From: a virus
DNA length: 11,900 nucleotides
Strand: one strand, 5' to 3'
UHGV virus genome: UHGV-0199485
The position numbers were made by a program, and so were the translations under genes. Below are positions 1 through 11,900 of the stretch, piece by piece (within the stretch, counting starts at the first letter, position 1; every line of letters starts with the position of its first letter). The notes beneath the pieces are model-generated. The model did no database searches, had not been told where the DNA came from, and was given only the letters and a program-made list of their open reading frames with translations.

Positions 1-1524
1 ATGAAACGTGTAATCAGCTACATCAGATTCAGTTCTGAGCGACAAGCCAAAGGCGACTCACTACGCAGACAGTCTAAGATGGTTAATGACTGGCTTAAGG
101 CTCATCCTGAGTACTACCTTGACCAAGATTTATCTTTTCGTGATTTAGGTGTGAGTGGATTCACTGGTAAGCACTTGAAAGGTGGCTTAGGTGACTTTTT
201 AACCGCTATCGAGAAAGGGCTTGTTAAAGCTGGTGATACGCTCTTGATAGAATCTCTTGACCGTCTCTCACGTCAGGATATTGATATTGCTTCTGAGCTA
301 TTACGTCGTATCTTAAGGGCTGGTGTCGATATAGTCACACTGAGCGATGGTGAACATTACACACGAGAAAGTTTAAAAGACCCGTTAGCTCTGATTAAGT
401 CCATCTTGATTATGCAAAGAGCACATGAAGAGAGTCTGCGTAAGGCTGAGCGTATACAAGCTGCATGGGATGCAAAGAAAGAAGCTGCTAAAGCTGGTAT
501 CAAGATTTCTAAGCGTTGTCCTGCATGGCTTAAGCTTAATGATGACCGTAAGACCTTCTCTGTGATACCTGAGAAGGTAGAAACTGTGAGGAGATGCTTT
601 CAATTACGGTTAGAGGGTAAGTCTATTTGGGAGATTGTCAGGGCTCTTAATGATGAAGGTCACCAGACACTTAACCAGTACAAAGCAGGTAAGTTTGGTC
701 AAACCTCAGTGCAAGACCTTCTGAAAAATCGCTCTGTAATTGGTTACTTCACACCTAAAGGCTGTGAGGAGATAGCTGGTTATTTCCCCCCTATCATCCC
801 TGAGACTGATTTCTACAAAGTCCAGCAACTATCATATTCTCGTTACGGTAGAAAACCTGCTTCAGATAAACCATTGAGTGTGAATCTCTTTAAAGGTGTT
901 ATCCGTTGTTCTGAATGTGGTCATGCTTTGATTATCACAGGCTTTAGCGATACAAGAAACGGGATTTATCGTTGTCCTCTTCGTAATGAAAACCGTTGTA
1001 GTGCTAAAGGACTTTCACGTAAGCAAACCGATGGTACATTGCTTGCCCTGCTATCCCGTATAGACCGATTTGATAGCGATATGACGAATACCATAGACAC
1101 ACTGAAGCTACACCGTGAACACATCTCAAGCAATATTGAAAAGCTGGTACAGCTATCACTTGAAATTGAAGACTTGTCCGCTATTACCAGCAAACTAAAA
1201 CAGTTAAAAGGTGAGCTATCACAGGTTAATGCGGATATCGAGAAGGAGACACAACGCCTTAAATCTATTGATGTTGGTTGTTTGTCTGATTGTGACTTGA
1301 CTACAAAGGCGGGAAGGATTGAAGCACAACTGATAATCAAAAGTGCTGTTAAAGAGGTCATTTTAAATACTGCTAAACGTCGCTGTAAAGTGACTTTTCA
1401 CAACGGTAAGGTAATTGACTTACCTATAACAGAAGACCCCTCAGAGAATGTTACAGAGGCTATACAGTCGCTTTCTGAAGTCACTGAGAGGGGTTTAATA
1501 GATGTTGATGAGGTTATCATATAG
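1..1524 (+). CDS. Large serine recombinase (integrase-type)
   Basis: 507-aa ORF starting at window base 1. N-terminus MKRVISYIRFSSERQ places the resolvase-fold catalytic serine about 10 residues from the start. A long C-terminal extension follows, with Cys pairs (CSECGH ... YRCPLRNENRC, zinc-ribbon-like) and a coiled-coil tail, which is the large serine recombinase architecture. RBS and promoter lie outside the window. Confidence 0.85.
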   Translation: MKRVISYIRFSSERQAKGDSLRRQSKMVNDWLKAHPEYYLDQDLSFRDLGVSGFTGKHLKGGLGDFLTAIEKGLVKAGDTLLIESLDRLSRQDIDIASELLRRILRAGVDIVTLSDGEHYTRESLKDPLALIKSILIMQRAHEESLRKAERIQAAWDAKKEAAKAGIKISKRCPAWLKLNDDRKTFSVIPEKVETVRRCFQLRLEGKSIWEIVRALNDEGHQTLNQYKAGKFGQTSVQDLLKNRSVIGYFTPKGCEEIAGYFPPIIPETDFYKVQQLSYSRYGRKPASDKPLSVNLFKGVIRCSECGHALIITGFSDTRNGIYRCPLRNENRCSAKGLSRKQTDGTLLALLSRIDRFDSDMTNTIDTLKLHREHISSNIEKLVQLSLEIEDLSAITSKLKQLKGELSQVNADIEKETQRLKSIDVGCLSDCDLTTKAGRIEAQLIIKSAVKEVILNTAKRRCKVTFHNGKVIDLPITEDPSENVTEAIQSLSEVTERGLIDVDEVII

Positions 1525-1538
1525 TTGAGCTTCTATCG

Positions 1539-2312
1539 TCAGTAGCGCTTGTTAGGATTAACAGACAGCCTCTTCAAAACATTACCTGCACCAGCATTAT
1601 TAAGCACTTTCGAAGCTTGCCCATTAGCGGCATCTGAGAAGGTGCTTTTTCCATTCTCAACTCTGACACTTTTACTACAATTGATACGGGCTTGAAGTTG
1701 CTCATTAGAAAGTTCACTCGCAGAGCGATTATATAGCTCCTGACACATCAACATACCATTACCTAAACTTGTCGTAGTGTTCCCAGTGTTCTTTTTACTG
1801 GTAGCACCACCATCATTCGTGGTAGCGGTCTTGCCAGTAGCAGATGAAATATCAGTTTGCCCTACAATGGCTTTGAAGTTAATTTCCTGAAAAGTTAACT
1901 GGATTCTCAGACCATTTGAAATACCAACATCTTTAGAGGCTTTAAAGCTCGTGATAATGGAATCATCAATTTTAATTCCGTCTTTACAGATGACTGAAAT
2001 AATCTGCTTCTGGTCACGCCAGCTTTCAAGAGTGTCGATGAAGTTTTCTACTAATTGCCCCTGACGAGTTAATAATAAGCTACCTTCATAGCCAACTACA
2101 ACGACACCACTAATAGTGATTGTTCTGGGTGCTCTTTGCACATTATCTGTGACGGTTTGCCCTGATTGCATGTTCTGTGTAGTAACCTGCATAGGGCTGT
2201 CAAATTCCATGTTTTCAGTAGCTGATAAGGTTAAGAAGGCATCTACATTGTCTCTTAAGTGGAAATAGATGCCGTCTTTGCCAGTGTAACGAAGCTGATT
2301 AGTGTAAATCAT
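1539..2312 (-). CDS. Putative phage tail protein directly downstream of the tape-measure gene (distal-tail-protein position)
   Basis: ORF track gives 264 aa from an in-frame TTG at 2333. The first ATG (2312-2310) is preceded by AAGGAG at 6-nt spacing, so a 257-aa product from 2312 is preferred. Beta-rich N-terminal half, then a Thr/Asn/Gly-rich linker. The functional call rests on gene order after the tape-measure gene, not on a recognised motif. Confidence 0.5.
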
Positions 2313-2388
2313 TAAATTCTCCTTTGATTTCAAAGACTTAGTGCATTTTAATCATTTTTAACCAAGCCTTTGATATTTAAGTGTTTTA

Positions 2389-2458
2389 TCTGTTAAGCGT
2401 GAGCTACGTGAAAAATAATTTTTGGTGGGTATATCTGTTCAGGAGATTTCACGTAGCA
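2389..2458. repeat. Copy A of a 70-bp conserved dyad element (candidate activator-dependent promoter or recombination-type site)
   Basis: tctgttaagcgtgag-CTACGTGAAA-33 bp-TTTCACGTAG-ca. 68/70 identical to copy B (4534-4603). The 10-bp inverted-repeat arms are at 2404-2413 and 2447-2456. It lies between the tape-measure stop (2470) and the start of the next leftward gene (2312). Confidence 0.8.
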
Positions 2459-2469
2459 TTCGACTATTA

Positions 2470-4518
2470 TCAATCATCTTCTGGGAATGATGAACTTAAT
2501 AGCGTAGCTTCTGCGTATTGGTCGTAGATATTACTGCTAAAGGTCATAAAGCTGGTTTCATCTGGTTTAATGGCAACTTCACCACCAAGTGAAACTTTCA
2601 CAGGCTCCTGAATACGTTTGCTCAAAGCACTAATTTCATCTCTCAGGCTTTGGATATCCGTATTCGTTAATGCCGCATCTTGTCTCATGGTGATTAATTC
2701 TGGATGCTGGAAGTTAGCAAGATTCATAGCTGCACTATTAAACCAACCTTTCACATCGTCCATAGTAAATACTGGCTTAAGTCCAGATTCTTTAGCTAAC
2801 TCTGGTAATTTAGCTTGTGCTTCCATTCGTTCAGGTGTAGAGGCTAATCTTTCATAACCTGCATAGAGAGCGCTACCAGCTAATAGCATATTCCCAAGAT
2901 TCAGTCTTGATGGTTTCCCATTCTTTCTATTCACGTTATCCGCTGTAGTATCAGCAACCTGACCTAATCTTGTGATAGCAGTCATAAGCCCGTAAATACT
3001 TCTGGTTACACCAACAACTTTATTTACAGCAATAACACCAGCCAAGACTTTTAAACTATTAATCAAGCCAGAACCTAAAGCATCAACAACTTTCTTTTGT
3101 TCATCGGTTAAACCACGGTAAGCTAATGTCACCTCATCGAAGAACGCTCTTACCCTGTAACTGATATCAGTCAGGCTATCCACACCACTTGACATATCAG
3201 TCATCAAGCTACCAAGAGATTCACCAAGACTTTTACCGCTTCCACCTAAACTGTTTAAAAGCGTTGTTAAGCTTCGTGTGAAATCTTGCAGACCATTTTC
3301 AGAACCTCTGAAAATATCCGTTAATGAATTGTTCCAAGTATTCTTTAAGTTCCCTAACATTGTCTGCGTAGAGTCCTGAATAGCTTTCCAGCCACCTCTT
3401 GAATTAATCTGTGAACCAAGTTCTTTAGCAAACTTAGGGAGTGCATCAGAGGCTTTAACATCACCATTTTTCATCTTATCGAAAAGCTGTTTTTCAGTCA
3501 GACCTAAAGCCTTTGCAAATGCCTGAGTAGCACCCGGTAAAGCTTCAGATAGTTGCCCCTTAAGCTCTTCAGCCATCACCTGACCCTTAGAAGCCATCTG
3601 CGATACTGCGGTTAATGCTCTTTGAATCTGCTCATCTGAACGACCCATTAAACGAGCATATCCAGTTAAGTTTTTAAATAACTCTTCTGCCCCTTCAAGA
3701 CCCATCGTGTTCTTTGCAGATGCACCAAATGAAGCAAATTGCGCCTGTGTTTCGGTTGTGTCCATACCAGTAATTTGAGTTAAATCTTGAATGAACTTTT
3801 TGACCTGTGTACTTTGGTCACCGAATACGAAATCAATACTTCTTTCCGATGATGCACGTTGAAGGCCAACTTCCATAATCTTCTGATAAGCGGATAGTAC
3901 AGCCTGAAAGCTGATAAATGCACCTGCTGTTTTAACTGCTGCTGAACTCAAACTATCAAGACTATTAGCTGCTTTGTCACCGTTAATGCTGGTGGATGTA
4001 TGACCTCTGGCTTTAGCAATTGCTTCTCGTACACTTGAATTTAGTTTAGCAAGGGCTTCATTGAATTTTGAATTATCCATTGACCCAGCTTTAGCAGATA
4101 GCCCGTAAAACTGAGATTTGATGTATTTCTGCAAAATAGGGTCAAAGCCTTTTAACTTGCTCATGTTAGCCTGATAAGCTGCTCTTACTGCTCTATCACC
4201 TGTAACCCTTCTTGGCCTCGATTGTCTTGGCGGATTAATAACGTCATTAACCTGACTTGTGAAACGGAAAGCTTTAGTATTTTTTGCTCTAGCTTCCAGA
4301 CGGTCAAAAGTCTTATTAATTTTTCCTTCCATTGACTTCAAAGAAGCCGTTAAATTGCTGTCAAGTTTCTTGGTATCGACCTTAAACGCCCTATTCAAAT
4401 TACGTTCAATTCTTTGTGCTGACTGCAAAGCTGCCTTTTCAACTCTTTGCAAGCCCTTAACAACGTTCTCGCTGAAGCCTAGCTCAACGATAAAACTATC
4501 AACTGTGAATTTGCTCAT
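2470..4518 (-). CDS. Phage tail tape measure protein
   Basis: 682-aa ORF. The central segment ...SDEQIQRALTAVSQMASKGQVMAEELKGQLSEALPGATQAFAKALGLTEKQLFDKMKNGDV... fits the conserved tape-measure domain pattern. Helical N-terminal region and Gly/Ser-rich stretches are also typical. GAGGTGA lies about 10 nt upstream of the ATG. Confidence 0.75.
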   Translation of the reverse strand: MSKFTVDSFIVELGFSENVVKGLQRVEKAALQSAQRIERNLNRAFKVDTKKLDSNLTASLKSMEGKINKTFDRLEARAKNTKAFRFTSQVNDVINPPRQSRPRRVTGDRAVRAAYQANMSKLKGFDPILQKYIKSQFYGLSAKAGSMDNSKFNEALAKLNSSVREAIAKARGHTSTSINGDKAANSLDSLSSAAVKTAGAFISFQAVLSAYQKIMEVGLQRASSERSIDFVFGDQSTQVKKFIQDLTQITGMDTTETQAQFASFGASAKNTMGLEGAEELFKNLTGYARLMGRSDEQIQRALTAVSQMASKGQVMAEELKGQLSEALPGATQAFAKALGLTEKQLFDKMKNGDVKASDALPKFAKELGSQINSRGGWKAIQDSTQTMLGNLKNTWNNSLTDIFRGSENGLQDFTRSLTTLLNSLGGSGKSLGESLGSLMTDMSSGVDSLTDISYRVRAFFDEVTLAYRGLTDEQKKVVDALGSGLINSLKVLAGVIAVNKVVGVTRSIYGLMTAITRLGQVADTTADNVNRKNGKPSRLNLGNMLLAGSALYAGYERLASTPERMEAQAKLPELAKESGLKPVFTMDDVKGWFNSAAMNLANFQHPELITMRQDAALTNTDIQSLRDEISALSKRIQEPVKVSLGGEVAIKPDETSFMTFSSNIYDQYAEATLLSSSFPEDD

Positions 4519-4533
4519 TGTTCATATTTCACC

Positions 4534-4603
4534 TCTGTTAAGCGTGAGCTACGTAAAAAATAATTTTTGGTGGGTATATCTGTTCAGAAGATTTCACGTA
4601 GCA
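4534..4603. repeat. Copy B of the 70-bp conserved dyad element
   Basis: Same sequence as copy A with two substitutions (left arm CTACGTAAAA; core CAGAAGA vs CAGGAGA). It ends 15 bp upstream of the tape-measure ATG and directly follows a terminator-like hairpin. Confidence 0.8.
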
Positions 4604-4939: not shown

Positions 4940-5644
4940 TTAAACAGCCTTGCTAAATTCTCGTGGAACACTCAGAAAATCATTGAAGCTGATAATCTGT
5001 GCCAACTCTTGACGGTACTCCTTAGCCAGCGCTTGATGGTCACTAATCAGCTTAGCCAGTCTTGATTTCAGCAAATTAATCTCATTTTCTCTTGCTTTCA
5101 TCAGTTTCTCTTTGGCAATTTCTTCAAGCTCAGCTTGTGATTTATCAGCAACAATTAGAGACAGTTGATGTGGCGCTCTGATGGCCCTTTCCGTACGAAT
5201 AACCCTTTGACCTTCTGGTAAATCTGCAATCACTTTACCAATCTCTACAGGGTCATACCCCCAACCGTCACGGTCTAGTCGAGAGAAATAAGCATAAGAA
5301 TTGGTTTGAAGCTCCATCAAAATAGCCATTTCGTCGATTTCGTCTTCAAGCTTGGACTGAATTTTCTCGTAAACACTTCTCATTGCTTCTTGAGAGTCTT
5401 TAATAGCTTGGAAATATCGGCGTTGCAGCTTCAGTTTCAAATCAAGCTCACATTCCTCATTCATCGAAAAATCAATTTCAACTCTTGGAATCTCGAGTGG
5501 TTCTGGTGGAATATATGGACCTTTATTTACTTCGTGTGATTCCCGCCAAGCTCTATCAAAAGATTCACGCAAACTTAATTCGTGAATATCAAGTGCACTT
5601 GGTTTGTTTTCGATAATCATTTCATGTTCATCACGGATAGACAT
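4940..5644 (-). CDS. Hypothetical acidic, predicted helical/coiled-coil protein (234 aa)
   Basis: AGAGGA lies about 9 nt upstream of the ATG. Glu-rich, with a C-terminal heptad-like segment (ELEEIAKEKLMKARENEINLLKSRLAKLISDHQALAKEYRQELAQI). No catalytic motif recognised. Confidence 0.6.
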   Translation of the reverse strand: MSIRDEHEMIIENKPSALDIHELSLRESFDRAWRESHEVNKGPYIPPEPLEIPRVEIDFSMNEECELDLKLKLQRRYFQAIKDSQEAMRSVYEKIQSKLEDEIDEMAILMELQTNSYAYFSRLDRDGWGYDPVEIGKVIADLPEGQRVIRTERAIRAPHQLSLIVADKSQAELEEIAKEKLMKARENEINLLKSRLAKLISDHQALAKEYRQELAQIISFNDFLSVPREFSKAV

Positions 5645-7689: not shown

Positions 7690-7986
7690 TTACCGGCACT
7701 TTCCCTTGATAATATTGGTGGCCCTCAGATTACCGGGGTCACCGTCTTTTAATCGTAGCTGGTGGACTGAATCCCAGATATCATAATGATACAGCACTGC
7801 AAACCTCAAAGCGTCAATCTTTAAATCTGTCACACCATCAAAAAAGAAATAATTCTTTCCTTCCTTCTTCGGTCGAATCCGGTAAACCTCCCCATGAGTA
7901 TCTTTCAGAAGATGACCTTCACGAGAAATGCTGTAGCGCCTTAATAGATAATCTTTGTATCGTTTTTCACCGTTATATTCTCTCAT
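7690..7986 (-). CDS. Hypothetical 98-aa protein translationally coupled to the replication initiator (weak HNH-like motif)
   Basis: Its ATG overlaps the rep stop (ATGA, 7983-7986) and GGAGGT lies 5 nt upstream. C-terminal VHQLRLKDGDPGNLRATN loosely resembles an HNH-type motif but lacks the canonical residue pair, so a nuclease assignment is tentative. Confidence 0.5.
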   Translation of the reverse strand: MREYNGEKRYKDYLLRRYSISREGHLLKDTHGEVYRIRPKKEGKNYFFFDGVTDLKIDALRFAVLYHYDIWDSVHQLRLKDGDPGNLRATNIIKGKCR

Positions 7987-8897
7987 TGGATACCTCCACC
8001 TGCATAGTACATTTTAGGCTTAACCCTTTGCTTCTTATTTTCACTAACTACTTTCTTCTTTGGTGTGAAAGAAAAGTCATCATCGTCACCATCATCAAAG
8101 TCATCGAGGTCATTAACCTTGTTCTTTAGCTTCGCCATTTCAATGCGTGATTTAATCTCTGCTTTGCGTTGTGCTTTTTTAATAGCCTCTTCACGCTCTG
8201 ACTCTTCATCAAGGTAATCATCGAAGGGGTCCATCTCATCATCAGTGGCGGGGCACTGTGTGTTTTTATGGTCACTATCAACATTCACATCAGAGATTTT
8301 ATCCTCCTCTAAGTCAGATGTTTTAGAAGCCTCTTTAGTAGCTTCACTATCAAGGTCAGATTCATTCATAGAGAGAAAATCATTTAATTCATCCAAAGAA
8401 AGAAAGTCATCTTCTTTATTGTTATTAATAAGTTCTTTCTTGTTATTACTGTTATTATACGTGTCAAAGATTTTGACTGACTGAGTAAAAAATTTTGACT
8501 CAGTGGGTAAAGAATTTTGACTCAGTGGGTCATCTTTCTTGACTGACTGAGTAACTTTAGACTCCAGCTTTGCCTTTCTGGCTTCCTTAGCTGTAAGCTC
8601 TGTTAAAACTTCCGGTACTTCATCAAGTGAATAAACTTTAATAACACACTGATTGCTTGCAACGTTAGTTTTCTTGATTAAACCATGTGCCTCAAGTCGT
8701 TTCATACATGCAATCACGGATGTTCTTGTGATTCCAGCATACTGACCAAGATGAGCATATGAAGGGGTATAATATTGCCCCTTATCGTGATAAAACTTCT
8801 GTTCATTCAACATGACAGTGTAAATAATACGGTCGGCAGCTTTAACGCCATTAGTCATCTGATAAATACGGTCATCAAACATGTGGAATTTTTCCAT
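7983..8897 (-). CDS. Replication initiator protein (winged-helix, RepA_N-like N-terminal domain) with acidic C-terminal tail
   Basis: Preferred start is ATG 8897-8895 (MEKFHMFDD...), preceded by AAGGAAAA at 7-nt spacing; the ORF-track start at 8954 has no RBS. N-terminal ...DRIIYTVMLNEQKFYHDKGQYYTPSYAHLGQYAGITRTSVIACMKRLEAHGLIKK... resembles the DNA-binding domain of RepA_N-type initiators. Iterons and an AT-rich tract lie inside the coding sequence. The C-terminus is a poly-Asp/Glu tail (DDFDDGDDDDF). Confidence 0.6.
   Translation of the reverse strand: MEKFHMFDDRIYQMTNGVKAADRIIYTVMLNEQKFYHDKGQYYTPSYAHLGQYAGITRTSVIACMKRLEAHGLIKKTNVASNQCVIKVYSLDEVPEVLTELTAKEARKAKLESKVTQSVKKDDPLSQNSLPTESKFFTQSVKIFDTYNNSNNKKELINNNKEDDFLSLDELNDFLSMNESDLDSEATKEASKTSDLEEDKISDVNVDSDHKNTQCPATDDEMDPFDDYLDEESEREEAIKKAQRKAEIKSRIEMAKLKNKVNDLDDFDDGDDDDFSFTPKKKVVSENKKQRVKPKMYYAGGGIQ
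8471..8554. repeat. Four iterons at exact 22-bp spacing (candidate origin of replication inside the rep gene)
   Basis: TTTTGACTGACTGAGTAA (8471), TTTTGACTCAGTGGGTAA (8493), TTTTGACTCAGTGGGTCA (8515), TCTTGACTGACTGAGTAA (8537). An AT-rich tract (about 8395-8465) flanks them on the low-coordinate side. On the coding strand they encode a low-complexity linker. Confidence 0.55.
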
Positions 8898-9159
8898 TAT
8901 ATTTTCCTTTTTAAAAATAAAACAAAGAAAGGGCTGACCACGTATAGTGACCAACCCCAGAGGGAGTGAATTAATTAGAAGATGGACTGATAAAGGAACT
9001 CAGAAGCCTGAGCGATTACGCGAGTATTAACAGCAAAAGGAAAAGCCTTGATTGAATAAGAGGCCGTGAAAATCTGTCAATACCCTGACGCCTCCCAACG
9101 TTGTAACCTCTTAATGTTCTGAGTTCTTTTATCAGCCCATATAGAAACTATAACAGATG

Positions 9160-9214
9160 TGATTATAAATTGCAACAATTATTTCACAGAATAATTACTG
9201 TTTGATTATAAATT
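9160..9214. repeat. Two exact 12-bp direct repeats TGATTATAAATT in the non-coding control region
   Basis: Copies at 9160-9171 and 9203-9214; on the minus strand each contains TATAAT. Function unknown (operator or -10-like boxes facing the rep gene). Confidence 0.4.
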
Positions 9215-9763
9215 AAGCAATCAAGCTAAAGGGTATTGACAAAGGGCTTGACAAGATTTTACCCTTTTAAAAGATACTTAAAAGATTCCGTTAAACAGGG
9301 TTTTCTTTCTGGTTTCTTCTCTCTCTTAAAAGCCTTTTAAGAATCCTATATAGAAGCAGTAAGTCTCAAAAACTCTGTGGGATAATTTCTAAAACACATC
9401 TCTCAGACTTCACTAGACGCATTCTAAGCCCCTAAATCGGGTAACTCTGGCAATCACCTTAAGCACTCTGAAAATAGCTTCAAAACTCGCTACAGAGCTT
9501 CCTGTGAACTGGTCTATGAATAGCCTAAACTGGTTGATAGGTTTGATTAAAATCTGTACAGATAATATCCAGCCTCTAATTTTTTTATAAAATCGTATTA
9601 GTCCCTCTTCATTTCTCTTCCACCGAATTTTTCGAAAATATCACAAGGCAGTGTATAGCTGCTAAGTACCCGCCACACCAGCTATGTGACCCCCTTTGCA
9701 GAATTTTAAAATATCTATTGACTTTCTATGTGAACTGTTATAAAGACCGCTCCATCTCTTAGG

Positions 9764-9856
9764 CGTACCGATATAGCATACTAAAAAGGTATAGCTAACC
9801 CCCTGTAAAAACCATACCGATTAGCCTTGTAAAACACTTTATCGGTACGTTATACT
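9764..9856 (+). promoter_or_regulatory. Candidate recombinase promoter overlapped by symmetric TACCGAT motifs (possible res-like or autoregulatory site)
   Basis: TTGTAA (9827-9832), 18 bp, TATACT (9851-9856). Inverted repeat CGTACCGAT (9764-9772) / ATCGGTACG (9841-9849), plus a third TACCGAT at 9815-9821. Confidence 0.35.
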
Positions 9857-9891
9857 TAACTCATCAAATGAGTAAGGCAAATGAGTATATT

Positions 9892-10434
9892 ATGGCTAAC
9901 ATCGGTTATGTTCGAGTTTCAACAATCCAGCAGATTACAGACCGTCAACTTGAAGGGGTCGTACTGGATAAGGTATTTACTGATAAAGCATCTGGGAAGA
10001 ATACAGACCGTCCACAACTAAAGGCTATGCTCGATTATGTTCGTGAAGGTGACACTATCCATGTACACGACCTGTCACGTTTAGGGCGTTCTACCGTGGA
10101 TGTATTAACGCTGGTGGATAAACTTTCACAGAGAGGTATCAAGGTTCACTTTCACAAAGAAGGTCTGATAACTGGTGACGATAACCCCACGTCTAAGATG
10201 ATTCTCACAATCTTTTCAGCAGTGGCTGAAGCTGAACGTAAAATGATGCTTGAGCGTCAACGAGAAGGCTATGAAGCTGCTAAAGCTGCTGGTCGTGTAG
10301 TTGGAAGGGGTAACGGTAAAGCGATTGACAGAGAAGGTATTAAAGCTGCTCTTGCTGCTGGTAGTTCAATCGCTAAAGTAGCCGCTCAATTCAACGTTGC
10401 CAAGTCAACTGTACAGCGTATTAAAGCTGAATAA
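9892..10434 (+). CDS. Small serine recombinase (resolvase / DNA invertase family)
   Basis: N-terminus MANIGYVRVSTIQQ with the catalytic serine, a resolvase catalytic core (..DLSRLGRS..), a Gly-rich linker and a C-terminal HTH (SIAKVAAQFNVAKSTVQRIKAE). The ORF track starts 8 codons upstream at 9868; 9892 is preferred from the family N-terminal pattern and promoter position. Neither start has a strong RBS. Confidence 0.85.
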   Translation: MANIGYVRVSTIQQITDRQLEGVVLDKVFTDKASGKNTDRPQLKAMLDYVREGDTIHVHDLSRLGRSTVDVLTLVDKLSQRGIKVHFHKEGLITGDDNPTSKMILTIFSAVAEAERKMMLERQREGYEAAKAAGRVVGRGNGKAIDREGIKAALAAGSSIAKVAAQFNVAKSTVQRIKAE

Positions 10435-10460
10435 TTTCTCATCACCTATATAGATTCATG

Positions 10461-10484
10461 GCCTCCTTAATTGGGGGCTTTTTT
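10461..10484 (+). terminator. Rho-independent terminator after the small serine recombinase gene
   Basis: GCCTCC (10461-10466), loop TTAATT, GGGGGC (10473-10478) with one G-U pair, followed by T6 (10479-10484). It lies 27 nt after the stop codon. Confidence 0.6.
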
Positions 10485-10490
10485 GTATCC

Positions 10491-10582
10491 TCTAAGCGTG
10501 TACTACGTGATGATTCGGATAAGAATTATCCTCATAAAATCTCCTGAACACTTACCCACCCTCAGAAATAACTTTCACGTAG
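10491..10582. repeat. Copy C of the dyad element, with the core in opposite orientation and 29 bp longer
   Basis: Shares TAAGCGTG-nn-CTACGTGA (10493-10510) and TTTCACGTAG (10573-10582) with copies A/B. Its 62-bp core contains AAATCTCCTGAACAC-TTACCCACC, the reverse complement of the A/B core GGTGGGTATATCTGTTCAGGAGATTT. Confidence 0.7.
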
Positions 10583-10655
10583 GAAATCGTTAAGGGTTTT
10601 ATAGTTACACTATGTGACCAACTGCATGAATAGCGTTATATATCCCTGTATATAG

Positions 10656-10671
10656 CACTATATATATAGTG
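10656..10671. promoter_or_regulatory. Perfect 16-bp palindrome CACTATATATATAGTG (operator-like)
   Basis: Exact palindrome in the intergenic region between element copy C and the 3' end of the 277-aa gene. A TATAGCA motif also recurs upstream of the recombinase (about 9771-9795). Confidence 0.3.
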
Positions 10672-10896
10672 TCTGGAGAGGAACGACTAACACGATACAG
10701 TTTACCCTGAAAAGAGACTTCACAGATTCTTTATATATTTCAATGAGTTAGGATAAAAAGGGACTATACCGATACTGCATAGAATCTGTGTAAAACTGCT
10801 TAGATATTTGAAGAAATACCGTTAAATTGCATAGTCATAGGGGTTGGAACAAGCCCAACTACACCTGTTTATGTCCTGTTATTTACAGGCATAGCA

Positions 10897-11730
10897 TTAT
10901 TGGTTAATTAATTCATTCGACTCTATATTATTACCTTTTTCTTTTTCCTTTTTAATTTTAGACTCAACCATATCTAACATTTTTAATGCCTGTGTTGAAG
11001 TTAGCTCTTTCTTTTGTCGTAGCGCGTTACGTATGGTAGAAGCTTCAATATCAGAAACTGTTAAAAGTTCTTCTACCCTACTCTTCAATTGCTGTAATGA
11101 ACGGCTATTATCAACTTTAAAGAAATCATTCATTACATCAAGTGAGGCAACAATCAAATCCTGTAGTCTCTCTTTTTCTTTTGCTATATTTTCAATAGTT
11201 TGTTTTTCAATAGATACTGACTCTTTTAAGTTGCTAATCTCTTTAAGCATCTGTTTCCTTGCTGTCTCAAGGTCTTCTGTGACCAACTCTTCACGCTTAC
11301 CACGCTCTACTTCCGCTTTAATATCAGCATCAATTTTAGCATTTTCTTTCTCTTCTTCTCTGGCAACCCGAACCTTTAACCCCGTTAACCTGATTGAATT
11401 AAGGTATTCCTTTTCTTTTGAAAGATAAATATTTTCACTGTGTTTATCTGTAGCCCATTTTTGAGCAAGAGAAAGTAACCATTGAGCATAAGGAGTAATA
11501 ACAGCTAGCACACTTCCAAAAAAGACAGGTGCTAACAGATAATGTACATAAAAATATTCCTGAGACAGAATATAATCTATTCGAAACTTAACAGGAGCAT
11601 CACTCATAAAGAGCATTGCCAAGTTAGGCCAATTGAACCATACCCATGCAAGAATGATATATCCCCATAATGGGCTTTTAATCCTATCGTTTATTGCTTG
11701 CATAGTAGAATCTAACCATCCATCACTCAT
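10897..11730 (-). CDS. Membrane-anchored coiled-coil protein (277 aa), function unknown
   Basis: GAGGG lies 6 nt upstream of the ATG. Two N-terminal hydrophobic helices (WGYIILAWVWFNWPNLAMLF; VHYLLAPVFFGSVLAVITPYAQWLL) are followed by about 180 aa of Glu/Lys-rich heptad-like sequence. Confidence 0.6.
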   Translation of the reverse strand: MSDGWLDSTMQAINDRIKSPLWGYIILAWVWFNWPNLAMLFMSDAPVKFRIDYILSQEYFYVHYLLAPVFFGSVLAVITPYAQWLLSLAQKWATDKHSENIYLSKEKEYLNSIRLTGLKVRVAREEEKENAKIDADIKAEVERGKREELVTEDLETARKQMLKEISNLKESVSIEKQTIENIAKEKERLQDLIVASLDVMNDFFKVDNSRSLQQLKSRVEELLTVSDIEASTIRNALRQKKELTSTQALKMLDMVESKIKKEKEKGNNIESNELINQ

Positions 11731-11806
11731 AGCTAACCCTCGGAAATCTTATCTTTCTGTCTATCATAACCACAAGCATCACCTTTAGGAACCATCTGAA
11801 ACGGGA

Positions 11807-11854
11807 GGTGTATTTAGACCTTGCTAATCTTCATCAGACACGTTTAAATACACC
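11807..11854. other. 13-bp imperfect inverted repeat with 22-bp spacer upstream of the 277-aa gene
   Basis: GGTGTATTTAGAC (11807-11819) and GTTTAAATACACC (11842-11854), one mismatch. A possible -10 TATGAT (complement of 11763-11768) lies between it and the gene start. Confidence 0.3.
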
Positions 11855-11900
11855 ACCTAAAGCGATACAATCGCGCTATTAGTTTTTATGGTGGTAAAGA

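Follow-up and report, generated by a model that had tools for sequence, protein, structure and literature searches.

A candidate Tn3/gamma-delta-like resolution cassette at the integrase-distal end of a satellite-like island of Escherichia coli

The closest described counterparts of the locus reported here are the res sites of Tn3 and of the island SGI1, whose resolvase S027 and restored res were described by Veress, Szabo & Kiss 2025 (PMC12217951). The Tn3 res consists of 28 bp, a 22-bp spacer, 34 bp, a 5-bp spacer, and 25 bp, and the experimentally verified SGI1 res is laid out as 28/22/30/2/25, with the centers of boxI and boxII 51 bp apart, the promoter over boxII, and boxI in the distal position (PMC12217951). 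The Tn3-like SGI1 resolvase resolves cointegrates at close to 100% efficiency and removes island multimers approximately three orders of magnitude better than homologous recombination alone; elimination of island multimers and tandem arrays by this resolution system has been shown experimentally (PMC12217951). Here, we analyzed the virus genome UHGV-0199485 (11,900 nucleotides in full length, hereafter the window), which represents an 11.9-kb E. coli island, and examined the small serine recombinase gene that it carries together with the DNA upstream of this gene. Positions 9765-10479 of the window probably form a self-contained Tn3/gamma-delta-like cassette of res, resolvase gene, and terminator that would serve autoregulated multimer resolution. 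The features of the cassette are as follows.

9765-9792, no strand: candidate site I (crossover), 28 bp, with the left arm GTACCGAT at 9765-9772 (-127 from the ATG) and a degenerate right arm AAGGTATA at 9785-9792
9793-9813, no strand: spacer between sites I and II, 21 bp, 95-100% conserved
9814-9848, no strand: candidate site II and operator, 35 bp, with ATACCGAT at 9814-9821 (-78) and ATCGGTAC at 9841-9848 (-51), an exact inverted TACCGAT pair
9827-9856, plus strand: sigma-70-like resolvase promoter, TTGTAA (9827-9832), 18 nt, TATACT (9851-9856), found by promoter scan as a consensus match only
9868-9889, no strand: candidate accessory site III, tandem half-sites ATGAGTA at 9868-9874 and 9882-9888, 14 bp apart, adjoining the start codon
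9892-10434, plus strand: small serine recombinase (resolvase) of 180 aa, with an N-terminal catalytic domain and a C-terminal helix-turn-helix (HTH)
10460-10479, plus strand: hairpin resembling an intrinsic terminator, found by terminator scan, at the end of the resolvase transcription unit

The open reading frame (ORF) at 9868-10434 matched PF00239 (2.3e-37) and HTH_7 (3.5e-5). Its product aligned over the full length with the gamma-delta (2.5e-31) and Tn3 (approximately 3e-31) resolvases, which are the closest solved structures, and the corresponding value for the Gin invertase was 2e-25. The true start is very probably the ATG at 9892 (MANIGYVRVST, 180 aa), because nucleotide homology with paralogues begins exactly there and the homologues annotated by PGAP are 180-183 aa long. 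Residues Y6, R8, and S10 are present in the protein. It shows the features of the small serine recombinase family, namely a catalytic domain with the serine and arginine residues, an HTH, and a length within 180-200 aa.

The candidate half-sites span -127 to -3 from the ATG at 9892, with the 28-bp dyad farthest from the gene. Candidate site I has an 8-N12-8 structure with a central AT at 9778/9779, the reverse copy AAGGTATA lying 20 bp beyond GTACCGAT. The arms of candidate site II, which is 97-100% conserved, flank the -35 element, and the centers of the two sites are 52.5 bp apart, corresponding to five helical turns. As in Tn3-type systems, res is directly upstream of the gene with the crossover subsite distal, site I is approximately 28 bp long with a central dinucleotide, the spacing is five turns, and the predicted promoter is inside res. 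Three inverted subsites are typical of the Tn3 type; in the window, sites I and II are inverted pairs, and the third group consists of two weak tandem half-sites in a layout that is kept across the subtypes described below. Each of these tandem half-sites has mismatches at three of eight positions, and they are the weakest part of res; site III could instead be read as a weak 24-bp dyad at 9852-9875.

TACCGAT was found four times in the window, at 9766-9772 (+), 9815-9821 (+), 9841-9847 (-), and 10767-10773 (+). This count compares with 0.6 expected, and four or more copies were obtained in 0 of 200 shuffles. When up to one mismatch was allowed, GTACCGAT had six matches in the 11.9-kb element, three of them within 91 bp (Poisson P of approximately 2e-6 against the element background); this half-site clustering test replaced a 7-mer enrichment test. 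A preliminary description of this DNA had placed three TACCGAT motifs and an inverted 9-mer pair over the candidate promoter, and all of these are present, along with the fourth TACCGAT at 10767. The exact pair consists of CGTACCGAT (9764-9772) and ATCGGTACG (9841-9849), but it is not one site: its two halves belong to different sites, the first being the left arm of site I and the second the right arm of site II. The promoter falls between and over the second and third TACCGAT motifs. The idea of a resolution site over the gene's own promoter is thus borne out at the sequence level, by the symmetric motifs and by the putative promoter over site II. Promoter-like sites found by the scan in this region were no more numerous than in shuffled sequences.

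The fourth TACCGAT (10767) was considered as a site-I-like copy with the same 26-bp span and was not returned at the scan threshold. The right-end block around it is conserved even in an island whose resolvase is unrelated, and this TACCGAT copy probably has nothing to do with res. A perfect 12-bp palindrome, ATCTGTACAGAT, was observed at 9552-9563, approximately 200 bp upstream of res, and similar sequence occurs in sister islands. This palindrome comprises two overlapping one-mismatch half-site matches, and the res geometry is absent from it.

Conservation of the upstream region was examined in 12 homologous cassettes of the window subtype. Positions 9765-9848 are 93-100% conserved, site I alone is 93-100% conserved, and the site I center GCATAC is invariant across all 12. 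In the most diverged cassette, that of Citrobacter, conservation is 100% for site I, 97% for site II, 92% for the gene, and 51-81% for the flanks. Because this non-coding DNA is more conserved than the gene itself, and because its layout survives replacement of the half-sites, there is strong sequence evidence that 9765-9848 is a functional res-type protein-binding site.

The replacement of half-sites was evident when four resolvase types, each with matching half-sites, were compared. Each line gives the half-site, the structure of site I, the distance between the centers of sites I and II, and the spacing of the tandem half-sites.

Window and Citrobacter L012 (93% protein identity): half-site GTACCGAT; site I 8-N12-8; I-II 52.5 bp; tandem 14 bp
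L010 (approximately 65% identity): half-site GTAGTGAT; site I 8-N12-8; I-II 52 bp; tandem 14 bp
L015, L016, and L017 (53-55% identity): half-site GTAGCGAT; site I 8-N12-8; I-II 60.5 bp; tandem 14 bp
PT62 type (36% identity, unrelated): half-site GTCTTAAAAG; site I 10-N6-10; I-II 63.5 bp; tandem 13 bp

Even the PT62 type has the same inverted, inverted, and tandem layout as the window. The recognition-helix regions vary in step with the half-sites (AKSTVQRIK, STQTVQRIK, and STNTISRIK). The layout is constant, and the half-site co-varies with the protein. Site I of L015 is a near-perfect 32-bp palindrome, GTGTAGCGATTAAGCATCCTTAATCGCTACAC, with a central AT; 21 of its 32 positions, counted by eye, are identical to window positions 9763-9794, including the center GCAT. 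The second dyad of L015, L016, and L017 encloses a -35-like GCCTTG, and that of L010 is weaker, with a weak right arm. In a further subtype (L013 and L014), the first dyad is 32 bp long and the later sites are less clear. The four types with the matching half-sites GTACCGAT, GTAGTGAT, GTAGCGAT, and GTCTTAAAAG represent a ready-made set for a study of resolvase-DNA specificity, and such a series of resolvase types could supply orthogonal recombinase tools.

The best-conserved dyad, site II, lies directly on the promoter. This arrangement would also be compatible with a domesticated DNA-binding protein that represses its own or neighboring transcription and no longer recombines, as would the degenerate right arm of site I and the presence of Ser at the position of gamma-delta Asp67. 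However, Y6, R8, and S10 are kept in 74 of the 76 relatives aligned there, and equivalents of R68/R71 were found in nearly all. The Ser at the D67 position is the majority state in the clade (80 relatives, including plasmid-borne ones) and is therefore no sign of decay. Moreover, a pure operator would need no 28-bp dyad located 52 bp upstream, conserved at 93-100% and with an invariant GCATAC, and the candidate promoters of the leftward genes (9591-9562 and 9175-9147) are 170-600 bp away from res. We consider it improbable that the protein acts as a repressor only.

Resolution of multimers of the replicating element, one of two roles suggested in the preliminary description, is the best-supported function, and we regard it as likely in view of a lambda-O-like initiator with iterons and a single res. 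When the element was scanned with site I (32 bp) and site II (39 bp), no second crossover site was detected above chance, at a threshold for which shuffled sequence averages 1.5 matches. Each element has a single res, related cassettes are without exception colinear with the flanking DNA, and homologous islands are colinear. From the single res and the colinear islands, we infer that inversion or deletion within a monomer is excluded and that the substrate is two element copies on one molecule. The element can form such two-copy molecules, since it undergoes excision, carries an initiator and an origin of its own, and uses a serine integrase for integration. The closest plasmid-borne relatives of the resolvase (56-65% identity) are located on small plasmids, one of which, 5.5 kb in size, has a ColE1-type RNAI match; on plasmids of this kind, resolvases usually serve multimer resolution.

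In the proposed mechanism, resolvase dimers would occupy the 28-bp site I, the 35-bp site II, and the promoter-proximal accessory site, and crossover would take place at the AT 9778/9779. If two res sites are present as direct repeats on one molecule, recombination at site I would delete the intervening DNA and give monomers. The substrates would be circular multimers produced by replication or by homologous recombination after excision, tandem integrated arrays, or concatemers delivered from a helper capsid. Binding at site II and at the proximal half-sites would cover -35 to +1, by which the resolvase gene would repress itself.

The second role suggested in the preliminary description was action on dyad elements of approximately 70 nt, of which the window has three copies with the outer dyad CTACGTGAAA...TTTCACGTAG.

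2389-2458, direct: dyad element A
4534-4603, direct: dyad element B
10537-10582, inverted: dyad element C

Elements A and B flank the tape-measure gene, C is directly past the resolvase terminator, and the elements are absent from the phage collection. The inverted orientation of C relative to A and B, the label "DNA invertase" on the best PHROG family, and the suggested link to these elements would be consistent with a Hin/Gin-type invertase that flips an island segment, for example one bounded by A and B (direct) and C (inverted). In contrast, the gamma-delta and Tn3 resolvases outscored Gin, and the Mpi invertase model gave 70 bits against a cutoff of 272 bits. Elements A-C were considered as resolvase substrates and rejected, since they share no half-sites with res; half-sites of the TACCGAT type are absent from them. 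An element resembling copy C persists in a sister island that has no resolvase, and islands with an unrelated resolvase keep the same backbone, which weakens the link further. No second crossover-like site in inverted orientation was found, the homologous islands examined were all colinear without orientation polymorphism, and the arrangement of Hin, Gin, Cin, and Pin, with two inverted crossover sites and both orientations in nature, was thus not observed. An invertase is very unlikely, and this reading is already largely refuted. The dyad element may act in regulation or as a promoter in connection with helper infection.

Comparison of islands indicated that the resolvase cassette occupies a defined slot. 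The stretch from approximately 9700 to 10495 of the window contains the motifs, the gene, and the terminator, and occupancy of this slot varies among otherwise colinear islands in yecE. In strains SCU-387 and GmM077, the slot consists of 440-455 bp without a match to the window, and the SCU-387 stretch has no convincing ORF. In PT62 (L001 14177-15053), it holds the unrelated resolvase (36% identity) in the opposite orientation; 183 complete E. coli genomes have a gene of this type. A protein identical to the 180-aa resolvase of the window has index entries in 68 blocks of the assembly collection. In all eight places shown for it, the gene is the last one at the integrase-distal island end, and these places represent three attachment sites (beside msyB, in yecE, and a locus near putA) with integrases of 507, 509, or 547 aa. 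Small islands with tyrosine integrases, including one with a major-capsid gene, carry the paralogue of approximately 65% identity at the corresponding end, and approximately 300 genomes match at this level. Very roughly 500 of 5,426 complete genomes carry a resolvase cassette of some type, the island context having been checked for a handful only. At the DNA level, the cassette was absent from the plasmid and phage collections, and an exact-match search of IMG/VR with site II found none.

These findings bear on the earlier view of the gene as an orphan outside a recognizable Tn3-type transposon. The latter part holds, as neither a DDE transposase nor an ORF of approximately 1000 aa is present in the 11.9-kb element. 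The tnpA gene and the terminal inverted repeats of approximately 38 bp that define Tn3-family transposons were likewise not found, and the element is bounded by the att sites of a large serine integrase. The term orphan is wrong, since the gene is a regular exchangeable cassette at the integrase-distal end of a defined integrative island family.

The resolvase of strain A10 is 98.9% identical to that of the window, whereas the integrases are 34% and the tape-measure proteins 52% identical. This near-identity despite the diverged integrase and tape-measure protein shows that the cassette has been exchanged between island lineages. The same observation could be explained by a self-mobile cassette, in which the resolvase inserts, excises, or swaps its own cassette between islands at res, and the slot that is empty in L008 and L009 and filled by an unrelated, reverse-oriented resolvase in PT62 would fit this explanation, as would circular records of approximately 2 kb with only a related resolvase. 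However, a second crossover site flanking the cassette was not found, and the 2-kb circles share no island DNA outside the gene. Homology ends near 9700 on the left and, depending on the lineage, between the stop codon and beyond 10600 on the right. Breakpoints at the center of site I, which would be scars of resolvase-mediated island exchange, were looked for and none was detected. Because no homology limit lies at the candidate crossover center, the pattern argues for homologous exchange via conserved flanks rather than site-specific cassette movement, and we hold a self-mobile cassette to be unlikely. A supposed insertion in the res of strain GB089 was rejected, the extra DNA being downstream of the gene.

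The circular records mentioned above are annotated as plasmids: L101 (NZ_CP116175.1, 1985 bp), NZ_AP027492.1 (1952 bp), and NZ_CP130129.1 (Salmonella, 2000 bp). Their sole annotated gene encodes a resolvase 61% identical to that of the window. L101 appeared G+C-rich by eye and has GGGTTACTYA repeats and three copies of ATTACTAC upstream of the gene; no RNAI-type replicon match was found in it.

Several observations weigh against multimer resolution at a Tn3-like res. The right arm of site I is degenerate, with mismatches at three of eight positions, yet it is invariant across the 12 homologous cassettes. The half-sites of site III are weak and tandem instead of inverted, unlike those of the canonical Tn3 res, and the I-II spacing of 60.5 bp in L015, L016, and L017 is a non-integral number of helical turns, that is, off phase. 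The cruder 7-mer test was marginal, as some 7-mer occurred at least three times in 160 bp in 5.5% of mononucleotide shuffles, and the comparative evidence therefore carries the weight. Sister islands exist that have no resolvase, so its function is dispensable. Finally, a satellite packaged as concatemers might gain little from resolution in the lytic phase. Resolution might matter after transfer: an element of approximately 12 kb carried by a helper of 83-88 kb (the lengths of the phage records) may arrive as a concatemer and need to be converted to monomers before integration.

Multimer resolution nevertheless remains the preferred reading, and a broader form of it can be put forward tentatively. 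It is possible that the resolvase-res types, at least three of which are interchangeable, recur as a standard module throughout a large E. coli phage satellite family and provide monomerization in the manner of Cre/lox. If so, replicated or packaged concatemers of the approximately 12-kb unit would be cut to unit circles for insertion by the large serine integrase, and the same device would collapse chromosomal tandem arrays. No description of a monomerization step was found in the literature for any phage satellite.

The island context was examined through the following features.

1-1524, plus strand: large serine recombinase (island integrase) of 507 aa, with Resolvase, Recombinase, and Zn_ribbon_recom domains, adjoining attL in integrated copies
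7983-8954, minus strand: lambda-O-like replication initiator, matching PHROG replication-initiation families, with 22-bp iterons inside the gene (8466-8544) from the tandem-repeat scan
11804-11857, no strand: attP dyad of the circular form, inverted repeat I12, with a core at approximately 11827-11831

The window starts at the integrase ATG, and its last 74 bases are the sequence directly upstream of the integrase gene in integrated copies. Positions 10614-11831 correspond to the right end of integrated islands up to attR, and 11827-11900 to the 70 bp upstream of int; the window is hence the island in its circular form, with attP. The attP junction was searched for by exact match in IMG/VR and JGI metagenome contigs, and none was found. 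In E. coli strains PT62, SCU-387, and GmM077, yecE is interrupted by the island, and 569 of 5,426 complete E. coli genomes carry chromosomal islands related to the element as a whole. The Dit-like and tape-measure genes (1539-4518) showed a DNA identity of approximately 93% (about 90-96%) to lytic Felixounavirus phages (ekra, VpaE1, LTH02, and others), and the island outside these genes had no phage match. This pattern suggests that a satellite-like island and its probable helper have recently exchanged tail genes.

Other parts of the window were also inspected. The 0.9-kb stretch at 8955-9891 has no ORF of at least 50 aa, save for a 5-aa overlap at its left edge, and contains a cluster of five CTTTTAA/ACTTAAAAG repeats at 9181-9340; at the corresponding position of sister islands, 2-2.4 kb are free of annotated genes. 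The 22-bp iterons and the CTTTTAA/ACTTAAAAG cluster are probably origin or control sequences. A 277-aa protein encoded at 10897-11730 (minus strand), adjoining attP, has an apparent N-terminal membrane segment followed by a charged, coiled-coil-like region. Only some sister islands have it, its PHROG matches are all of unknown function, and PADLOC gave no match; this protein is possibly accessory cargo. PGAP annotates homologues of the 234-aa ORF at 4940-5644 (minus strand) as "transposase" or as "hypothetical protein", depending on the genome. The first of these labels is unsupported, since Pfam gave only a sub-threshold DUF7384 match and NCBIfam gave nothing. Rfam and tRNA scans of the window detected no RNA genes, and a PADLOC scan of the unknown ORFs and the resolvase detected no defense match.

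Barth, Dunham & Seed 2023 (PMC10055350), with a set of 224 elements, noted a putative E. coli satellite family on bioinformatic grounds. Its islands carry tape-measure and baseplate genes and modular replication initiators, and integrate by a tyrosine or a "novel serine recombinase" (PMC10055350). The window shares with these satellites a tape-measure gene, a replication initiator, and serine recombinase integration, and its backbone fits the family by this description. The words resolvase, invertase, and multimer are absent from the main text of PMC10055350, and the resolution cassette appears to be undescribed for this family.

Among known resolution systems, the cassette most resembles that of Tn3/gamma-delta in its sites: a 28-bp site I with a central AT, a spacer of approximately 22 bp, a site II of 34-35 bp, and approximately 53 bp between centers. 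The Tn3/gamma-delta resolvase gene is autoregulated from res, and the predicted promoter of the window overlaps site II likewise. Unlike Tn3/gamma-delta, the window has no tnpA and no 38-bp terminal inverted repeats, so it is no transposon, its third subsite has no evident 25-bp dyad, and its substrate would be element multimers rather than transposition cointegrates. The cassette can also be likened, by description, to RP4 ParA, Sin, and beta, which are stand-alone modules of res and resolvase that maintain replicons as monomers. Sin has a direct repeat as its accessory site, comparable to the promoter-proximal half-sites of the window; Sin and beta use two subsites and an architectural protein, whereas the window shows three half-site groups and its cassette is not known to require such a protein.

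As in SGI1, a small serine resolvase is located in the backbone of an integrative, excising, and replicating element, res is upstream of the gene with site I distal, and the putative promoter is over site II. SGI1 is helper-dependent, but its helper is a conjugative IncC plasmid and not a phage. Its boxIII is a 25-bp weak dyad in place of the tandem half-sites of the window, and its central dinucleotide is AC, compared with AT in the window. A resolution module of this Tn3/SGI1-like kind appears not to have been described previously in a putative phage satellite. The cassette itself is a textbook res and resolvase module, and its value lies in the context, in which it adds an undescribed exchangeable module to the recently noticed E. 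coli satellites of Felixounavirus-like lytic phages. The cassette leads to the prediction that these islands form multimers when they replicate, transfer, or integrate, and that, like SGI1, they control their copy structure.

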